Positions 1,315-6,189 of a stretch of 64,000 nt of DNA are shown here, piece by piece. Positions within the stretch are counted from its first letter, which is position 1; each line of letters starts with the position of its first letter. The stretch comes from Candidatus Freyarchaeum deiterrae (GTDB lineage Archaea > Asgardarchaeota > Jordiarchaeia > Jordiarchaeales > Jordiarchaeaceae). The position numbers were made by a program, and so were the translations under genes. The DNA lies in NCBI GenBank assembly GCA_037305845.1, contig CP147778.1, positions 1,920,001-1,984,000 of the forward strand, read 5' to 3'. The notes under the pieces are model-generated. The model saw nothing but the letters and a program-made list of their open reading frames with translations. It was not told the origin of the DNA and did no database searches.

Positions 1315-1543
1315 ACAAATACATAATTAACTGATAACGAAAATTTTAAAATGTTTTTAAATTAAGCCAGCCTGATACATACTCAAAACCAGAACTTTTT
1401 AAACACCAAAAGCCCACAAGAGGCATTCAAGCAAAGCAGTCCTGAACTATTTTTTTCCGAAATATTTCTCCACTCTTTTATCCCAAAAATATCAAATAAC
1501 CTAAATCACTTTTTATCATAATTGATATAATAACCGAATTCTC

Positions 1544-1558
1544 CGAAAAAATTTTATA
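1544..1558 (+). promoter_or_regulatory. BRE + TATA box for the tRNA-His gene
   Basis: CGAAAAAA-TTTTATA about 35 nt upstream of the mature tRNA 5' end. Confidence 0.6.
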
Positions 1559-1593: not shown

Positions 1594-1790
1594 GGCCCAA
1601 GTGGGGTAGACACAGTGTGCAATCACACTCTGCCCATTGGTTATCCTAGGGGACTGTGGTTATCTTGAAGCTACTGCTCAACGATAATAGTCATCCCTTG
1701 ACCCGGGCTCGTTAGCCGCTTTGGCTTCGTTTGGGAATTCAATTTGAGGATGATGCTTCGGCAGTTCTCATGAAACTCCCGGCTTGGGCC
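1594..1790 (+). tRNA. trnH: tRNA-His(GUG) with four introns (1610-1637, 1660-1692, 1708-1737, 1744-1776); genomic G-1 at 1594; CCA not encoded
   Basis: Joining exons 1595-1609, 1638-1659, 1693-1707, 1738-1743 and 1777-1790 gives GCCCAAG TG GGGT AGTGGTTA TCCT A GGGGA CTGTGGA TCCCT TGAC CCGGG TTCAATT CCCGG CTTGGGC C, a 72-nt canonical archaeal tRNA-His cloverleaf; each junction lies in a BHB or relaxed-BHB motif. Confidence 0.92.
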
Positions 1791-1994
1791 CTCAATTTCT
1801 TTTTGGTTAGGCGTTCAGTTTGTTTTTATTGGTTAATTACGGGGGCATTTTAGCTGTAGTTTTTATTGTGAATTTGTTAGGAGAAGAGGTTTTGATGGGT
1901 AAATTTTTGACTGCAGAGATAAAAGGATATTTATAGCGAATTTGTTCATGTTTTATTCAATTTGATTAAACTCAAAGGCGTTTGAGAGGTTTGA

Positions 1995-5079: not shown

Positions 5080-6189
5080 ATGATAAACCCAAAAGCAGAT
5101 GCAATATTTGACCCTCTGTATATACCACCAAAACTTTACCACCGCGAAAAAGAACTCAATGAACTTCTAAAATTGATTACCGATAATGAAACAAGTAATC
5201 TTCTACTTTATGGGCCTTCTGGATTAGGAAAAACATTGCTCGCTAGATATGCTTTGGTGACATTTTCCCAAAGCATGGGGAATGAAGTCACCCCTATTTT
5301 TGTTAACTTTTCCTATAAGAGCTTAGGAGAAATAATGTATCAGGTTAATGCATCCATATGTGATAATAAAGTATTATACTCGATTCCGATAAACGCTTCC
5401 GTAACAGAATTGTGGAACACATTCCGTAGGTTGAGAAGGGGAATAGAAAACAAAGTAGTAATTATAATGGACGACGTTGATGAGAATAATCGTAATATTC
5501 ACAAAAAATTTCTCCAGGAATCTAAGGAACTCGGAATAACAACAATTGCTACAGCTAAAACAGGTTATGCTAGGCAAATTAGAAAAGAACAGGAATTCCG
5601 CTCACAACTAGATTCCAGTATTTTCTTGGATTTATACTCGGAAAATGAGCTGATGGATATAACCTATCAGCGGGTGACGATAGCCTTTCCCTCATTTATA
5701 CGTCCATCTATAATACGCTTTCTGACTGACATCGTTTTGGAATTCGATATTGGAAAACCGAGCACAATTATTGAGATATTAAAAAGAATATATCCAGTTT
5801 CTGTGGGGGGCGCAGATATACTGCCTATTCATATCCAAGAAGCGAGTTCAAATATTTTCACCGTACAGGATGAAGTTACCATTATTGACTCCCTCACTCA
5901 GACAAGCTTAATGACACATCTGCTTTTTCAAAAAATTGCGCGGGTCTTTCAAAAGTATCTTTATGAGCCTTACATATCCCTTAACGAAATAAAAAAAGAG
6001 TATAATTTGCTTTACGAGGAATTAAAAGTGGATATCAACCTGGATGAGTTAATAGAATCTATAGACGATTTGCTTAGAACTGGATTAATATACCAATCAC
6101 ATTTCGATGCAGATTTATTTTATATAATAGTTCCTCCCAAAAAAATAACCGAGATATTGGATTTAACCCTTGACGGAAAATACGATTAA
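5080..6189 (+). CDS. Divergent Cdc6/Orc1-like AAA+ protein
   Basis: FDP.YIPPKL.HRE.E N-terminus, Walker A GPSGLGKT, Walker B IIMDDVD, Y..NEL.DI...R, C-terminal winged-helix-like region. Confidence 0.8.
   Translation: MINPKADAIFDPLYIPPKLYHREKELNELLKLITDNETSNLLLYGPSGLGKTLLARYALVTFSQSMGNEVTPIFVNFSYKSLGEIMYQVNASICDNKVLYSIPINASVTELWNTFRRLRRGIENKVVIIMDDVDENNRNIHKKFLQESKELGITTIATAKTGYARQIRKEQEFRSQLDSSIFLDLYSENELMDITYQRVTIAFPSFIRPSIIRFLTDIVLEFDIGKPSTIIEILKRIYPVSVGGADILPIHIQEASSNIFTVQDEVTIIDSLTQTSLMTHLLFQKIARVFQKYLYEPYISLNEIKKEYNLLYEELKVDINLDELIESIDDLLRTGLIYQSHFDADLFYIIVPPKKITEILDLTLDGKYD

Follow-up and report, generated by a model that had tools for sequence, protein, structure and literature searches.

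Introns at exactly positions 53/54 and 59/60 have been described in the pre-tRNA-Pro(GGG) of ARMAN-2 (2011, PMC3239211, Fig. 1C), and the passages of that report dealing with this pre-tRNA contain no test of splicing order. In Thermoproteales, nested introns are known in which the final motif is not complete until the others have been processed (Sugahara 2007; Tocchini-Valentini 2009; via PMC3728597 and PMC3978253). Sequential removal of tRNA introns was found by RT-PCR in the eukaryote Cyanidioschyzon merolae, where the preferred order is linked to how stable each motif is (PMC3728597). In Freyarchaeia and Atabeyarchaeia, 92-95% of tRNA genes carry introns, with four-intron genes listed and at most five introns per gene, and tRNAscan-SE often misses insertions in the T-arm (PMC11291895; bioRxiv 10.64898/2026.10.13.758758); the main text of the latter source discusses neither splicing order nor nesting. 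The pairing of sites 53/54 and 59/60 and stepwise or nested tRNA splicing are therefore already published, and the locus described below leaves knowledge of the mechanism unchanged. The tRNA table of the complete wetland-soil Freyarchaeia genome studied here appeared in 2024 (PMC11291895, Supplementary Data 4).

The window analysed is a stretch of 64,000 nucleotides of Candidatus Freyarchaeum deiterrae (contig CP147778.1, positions 1,920,001 to 1,984,000). The coordinates that Supplementary Data 4 gives for five tRNAs lead to those tRNAs in this single contig of 3,576,204 bases, which identifies it as the published genome. Splicing and ARAGORN identified positions 1594-1790 as a tRNA-His(GUG) gene with four small introns, inserted at 15/16, 37/38, 53/54 and 59/60. 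In the list and below, h, H and h' stand for the outer, central and inner helix of an intron motif.

[quoted passage not shown]
1543..1558, + strand: putative BRE/TATA-like promoter element, with the same motif at a similar distance upstream in 5/5 same-genus orthologues
1594..1609, + strand: exon 1, G-1 and tRNA positions 1-15
1610..1637, + strand: intron 1, site 15/16, central helix only, the least certain boundary of the four
1638..1659, + strand: exon 2, D-loop to G37, anticodon GTG at 1656-1658
1660..1692, + strand: intron 2, canonical site 37/38, strict hBHBh'
1693..1707, + strand: exon 3, positions 38-53, containing TTGA (intron 3 outer helix) and CCCG (intron 3 central helix)
1708..1737, + strand: intron 3, site 53/54, relaxed hBH/BHL, h of 4 bp, H CCCG:TGGG, no adjacent h'
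1738..1743, + strand: exon 4, TTCAAT, T-loop positions 54-59, common to both T-arm intron motifs
1744..1776, + strand: intron 4, site 59/60, HBh' in the precursor and strict hBHBh' once intron 3 is out, apical UUCG hairpin at 1754-1763
1777..1790, + strand: exon 5, positions 60-73, discriminator C73, CCA not encoded
1796..1804, + strand: T-rich tract, probable terminator judging from the sequence and from comparable tracts after the orthologues

A sigma-70 promoter scan was set aside as unsuited to archaea.

Removal of all four introns yields a canonical 73-nt tRNA-His(GUG) with G-1:C73, which ARAGORN accepts; no tRNA was found by ARAGORN or Rfam in the raw unspliced window. A custom intron-aware tRNA parser, which returned 44 loci genome-wide and none above threshold in the reversed genome, found the four introns at identical boundaries unprompted, its recovery of motifs being partly circular since it scores central helices. 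The gene is the sole His gene among these 44 loci; low-threshold ARAGORN gave 17 further 'His' candidates, most of which had a very long intron or an ATG anticodon. The published table for this genome (PMC11291895) lacks His, Phe and Ala(GGC). The tRNA-His(GUG) gene is judged to be real.

Compared with ARMAN-2 tRNA-Pro, the His gene has introns at the same positions and hence, by the numbering, the same exon 54-59 and overlapping motifs, and both organisms have an EndA of broad specificity, predicted in the present case. They differ in the tRNA (Pro as against His), the lineage (ARMAN as against Asgard) and the enzyme (epsilon2 as against alpha2beta2); moreover, the ARMAN-2 introns are described as strict hBHBh', while intron 3 here is relaxed. 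Nested pre-tRNAs of Thermoproteales likewise carry several BHB introns each and are processed by an alpha2beta2 EndA, but in tRNA-His only the outer helix of intron 4 depends on prior splicing, its central and inner helices forming beforehand. In C. merolae the motifs fold independently without overlap, whereas those of tRNA-His overlap.

The endonuclease gene lies 280 bases upstream of tRNA-His. In the numbering of its 211-aa ORF, the alpha subunit has the triad Tyr149/His157/Lys188 and a CSL (L1) loop with Lys66, equivalent to A. pernix Lys44; its best PDB match is the alpha subunit of A. pernix (Aeropyrum; E 8e-43), with the crenarchaeal-specific loop aligned. A second EndA paralogue at contig position 1,733,162 (minus strand), which has neither the catalytic His nor the loop, corresponds to the beta subunit, and RtcB is also encoded in the genome. 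EndA of the CSL type cuts HBh' and hBH motifs (PMC5829648, PMC3241643). The enzyme of this archaeon is predicted to be of broad specificity and able to cut relaxed motifs; at the level of sequence, an alpha subunit with the CSL lysine, a beta subunit and RtcB together make up an endonuclease for non-canonical motifs and a ligase. Further along the window, positions 5080-6189 hold a divergent Orc1/Cdc6-like gene that falls below NCBIfam cut-offs.

An initial annotation of this DNA proposed that the motifs of introns 3 and 4 exclude each other around a six-nucleotide exon. The pairings on which it relied were all found: the outer helix of intron 3 joins TTGA (1698-1701) to TCAA (1739-1742), the central helix of intron 4 joins TTCA (1738-1741) to TGAA (1771-1774), and exon 4, TTCAAT (1738-1743), is used by both motifs. 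The T-stem, CCGGG (1703-1707) with CCCGG (1778-1782), flanks intron 4 as a 5-bp outer helix only with intron 3 removed, there being 0 bp before. Shuffling left a canonical motif at the same junction in 1.3% of cases for intron 3 and in 2.3% for intron 4. Intron 2 is strict, and intron 3 departs from the strict BHB form, since its 5' bulge has no adjacent inner helix and a 4x2 internal loop results, which makes it hBH/BHL with h and H of four pairs each.

Mutual exclusion of the two motifs in their full form was likewise upheld, both drawing on exon 4 including U54. This base (1738) is the third and last one in the 3' bulge of intron 3 and also forms the first pair of intron 4's central helix, whose exon side lies wholly inside exon 4. 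Since U54 must be unpaired for one intron and paired for the other, introns 3 and 4 cannot both show a complete cleavage motif, and the conflict persists whatever the outer helix does. Bases 55-57 are likewise contested between the two introns in this gene. The overlap supports the proposed passage of one pre-tRNA through several cleavage-ligation cycles, and removal of introns 3 and 4 one at a time is well supported by these pairings.

The same annotation also noted a capped hairpin in intron 4. The element TGC-UUCG-GCA is present at 1754-1763; its UUCG loop is specific to this genome, being absent from 7/7 orthologues, and the tetraloop was rejected as a functional element.

The claim of an obligatory order, with intron 3 leaving first, exons 3 and 4 being ligated and intron 4 following after refolding, is not supported as such, while the interpretation as a whole stood in part. 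The strict motif of intron 4 does depend on prior splicing: on removal of intron 3 the modelled probability of its central helix, inner helix and T-stem together rises from 4e-4 to 0.36. The reverse route is, for its part, not structurally forbidden, since the motif of intron 3 is identical with or without prior removal of intron 4, and intron 4 already forms a BHB-type motif in the unspliced precursor (HBh', with a 4/4 central helix and a 7-bp inner helix), so that the nesting is not strict. Isolated motif energies are -10.7 kcal/mol for intron 3, and -10.3 and -18.6 kcal/mol for intron 4 before and after removal of intron 3. The modelled cleavage-competent fraction in the precursor is 0.007 for intron 3 and 0.03 for intron 4, values that shift about tenfold with the ends of the construct (intron 3: 0.0072 versus 0.0008) and come from a folding model that ignores tertiary structure and protein. 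Once intron 3 is out the fraction for intron 4 is 0.38, and once intron 4 is out that for intron 3 is 0.0005 (full precursor model). In most His orthologues the model makes intron 4 the better-populated first substrate, which does not favour removal of intron 3 first. A co-transcriptional case for intron 3 first was dropped, as folding of the nascent transcript gave no clear window favouring that intron. Taken together, the models do not decide the first step and predict a much better second step when intron 3 precedes intron 4; this appears to be the favoured route and the only one that would yield a strict second motif (-18.6 kcal/mol).

Orthologues of tRNA-His were read in five same-genus genomes and two further contigs, giving eight genes with the present one. 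Both T-arm introns are kept in 8/8, with central helices of 4/4 pairs throughout, and exon 4 is TTCAAT in seven and TTCAAC in one. Intron 1 has the central helix GGGT:GCCC here and AGGT:GCCT in orthologue L012; in orthologue G002 the parser places this intron at 8/9, and 15/16 fits too. Pairs were counted from the intron junctions, since the MAFFT alignment slips in C/G runs. The outer helix of intron 3 reaches 4 bp in half of the eight genes; one more gene has 3 bp, two have 2 bp and the last has 1 bp. Genes whose intron 3 lacks an adjacent inner helix (this genome, G001, G003, G004 and G005) have 3-4 bp, and those that keep one to five inner pairs (L012, L051 and G002) have 1-2 bp. On a tree of phoU and endA this pattern looks like two separate events, with 49% support for the internal branch; it is a hint of a working role for the outer helix in the present genome, two events being too few for a test. 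TTGA and TCAA also occur in the tRNA-His of Atabeyarchaeia-2, a gene with no T-arm intron, and the tRNA-Glu(UUC) of the present genome offers the same 4 bp with no 53/54 intron; ordinary tRNA body sequence is therefore enough to supply the outer helix.

Within the window, a phoU-like gene, the endA alpha gene and tRNA-His follow one another at 27-1790, an order kept in same-genus genomes. The tRNA lies just downstream of endA in those orthologous loci that reach far enough, and several contigs with the endA neighbourhood end before the tRNA or lack it. The tRNA and endA are not neighbours in more distant relatives (L054, L057), and on contigs L011 (913-1500) and L050 (1176-1800) a transposon-like ORF follows endA at the place that tRNA-His occupies in other genomes. 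A pattern search of five genomes of the same order and another family retrieved no His gene among its loci, which does not show absence. The 'His GTG, possible pseudo' annotated in Atabeyarchaeia-1 (L013 minus strand 101-294; G021 366,350-366,154) has, by the parser, a Val/Asp-like body and not that of His.

The best overall explanation, and a probable one, is a functional four-intron tRNA-His(GUG) that is spliced stepwise with a preference for intron 3 before intron 4. A broad-specificity (alpha-beta)2 EndA would cut all four introns and RtcB would rejoin the exons. Introns 3 and 4 would leave in two cut-and-ligate rounds, which would keep the hexamer exon covalently attached; simultaneous cutting would free it, a plausible cost. 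Ligation of exon 3 to exon 4 would close the T-stem and convert intron 4 from HBh' to strict hBHBh', and since it completes this motif the order 3-then-4 is favoured as the productive route. The order would be a preference with no lock, intron 4 already being a relaxed substrate in the precursor and the motif of intron 3 outliving the removal of intron 4. Other 53/54 introns with HBh' motifs face a different junction than intron 4 does in the precursor and are no proof of its cleavage there. Within this explanation the motif overlap is probably the geometric result of two common insertion sites lying six bases apart and not a purpose-built switch. That exon 4 is instead a selected interlock seems improbable: intron 3, having lost its inner helix in this lineage, would rely on pairing with exon 4 and so block intron 4 until one cycle of EndA and RtcB is done, the six-base exon never being released. 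Such an interlock, if true, would mean tight coupling of cleavage and ligation in an Asgard archaeon.

A strictly obligatory order, with the weak AU-rich central helix of intron 4 unrecognised until the T-stem stacks on it, is rather unlikely, although it draws on several observations. The strict motif of intron 4 arises only once intron 3 is out, every solo 59/60 intron in this genome has the T-stem as its outer helix, and modelling of Ala(GGC) clearly favours removal of its own intron 3 (53/54) first. The longer outer helix in genes whose intron 3 has no adjacent inner helix, apparently after two separate losses, is a hint in the same direction, but it comprises two events on a weakly supported branch, and three orthologues have an outer helix of just 1-2 bp, while Phe and Ala(GGC) have none. 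Moreover, an HBh' motif with a 7-bp inner helix exists in the precursor and CSL enzymes cut such motifs (PMC5829648), and the isolated energies of introns 3 and 4 tie. Removal of intron 4 first, or in random order with intron 3 as a slow last step, is decidedly unlikely. It would accord with the larger competent fraction of intron 4 in the precursor, with a lowest-energy fold that closes intron 3's 5' bulge GGC by pairing with GUU, and with C. merolae, in which motifs of lower energy are processed first and the introns of the D- and T-arm leave in either order (PMC3728597). The modelled differences, however, lie within the error of the energy model, the competent fraction of intron 3 drops once intron 4 is gone, and no strict motif arises along that route.

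Cutting of both introns before any ligation, with the hexamer held by base pairs or protein, and a gene that is a non-functional relic are hardly credible. The two central helices and the inner helix of intron 4 can coexist in the folding model (P 0.04), but U54 cannot be bulged and paired at once, and a hexamer held by 4 bp would presumably be lost. A relic is at odds with the status of this gene as the sole His gene found and with the conservation of exons and motifs in eight genes. The preferred reading remains stepwise splicing of a functional tRNA-His in which intron 3 tends to precede intron 4.

Among genes scoring 55 or more in the parser, 59/60 is the commonest intron site of the genome (16 introns) and 53/54 the joint third (6). 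Phe(GAA) and Ala(GGC) again have introns at both sites around a six-base exon; in these two genes, and in Arg(GCG) and Lys(UUU), the 53/54 intron has no outer helix (h = 0). The variable-arm parses of Leu/Ser and those of Pro(GGG) and Arg(TCG) were judged unreliable and left unused. Further genes parsed here and absent from the published table are as follows, in contig coordinates.

1,547,141-1,547,323: tRNA-Ala(GGC), introns at 33/34, 37/38, 53/54 and 59/60
1,547,648-1,547,839: tRNA-Phe(GAA), introns at 9/10, 30/31, 53/54 and 59/60
1,790,195-1,790,049, - strand: tRNA-Glu(UUC)
1,690,305-1,690,133, - strand: tRNA-Ser(GCU)
1,501,840-1,501,693, - strand: tRNA-Pro(UGG)
1,631,535-1,631,717: tRNA-Leu(CAG)
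1,888,852-1,889,089: second Leu(GAG)-like copy, the parsed form of which ARAGORN did not accept

Two published entries reparse differently, 'Ser AGA' at 1,326,639 as Cys(GCA) and 'Met CAT' at 1,545,739 as Glu(CUC).

In four relatives tRNA-Phe has the 53/54 intron only, with no intron at 59/60, and Ala(GGC) has neither T-arm intron; one relative carries the pair in both Ala(GGC) and Ala(UGC). By this distribution, gain or loss of the pair has happened repeatedly, and the pair is tolerated. In Ala(GGC) a 4-nt exon, GGCA, bears the anticodon, and the central helix of the 37/38 intron has two pairs at first and four only once the 33/34 intron has been removed. The 33/34 and 37/38 introns, kept in five relatives, are more strictly nested than the T-arm introns of His. 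In Phe, the introns at 30/31 and 53/54 are near-identical within several genomes, which suggests copying inside the gene. In relative G002 (L064:1501-1684, L070, L071), three alanine isoacceptors have very similar 53/54 introns and two of them also very similar 59/60 introns, which looks like copying between tRNA genes, a process described as uncommon in Asgard archaea (bioRxiv 10.64898/2026.10.13.758758).

With the tRNA-His gene, a reference Asgard genome gains the His isoacceptor that its published table lacked. The absence of all three carriers of the 53/54 and 59/60 pair (His, Phe and Ala-GGC) from the published table suggests that this pair defeats standard annotation. These genes and their orthologues also offer a small natural set of substrates, namely tRNA-His with or without the outer helix and tRNA-Phe with one or two T-arm introns, for asking how archaeal EndA and RtcB avoid the loss of a micro-exon.
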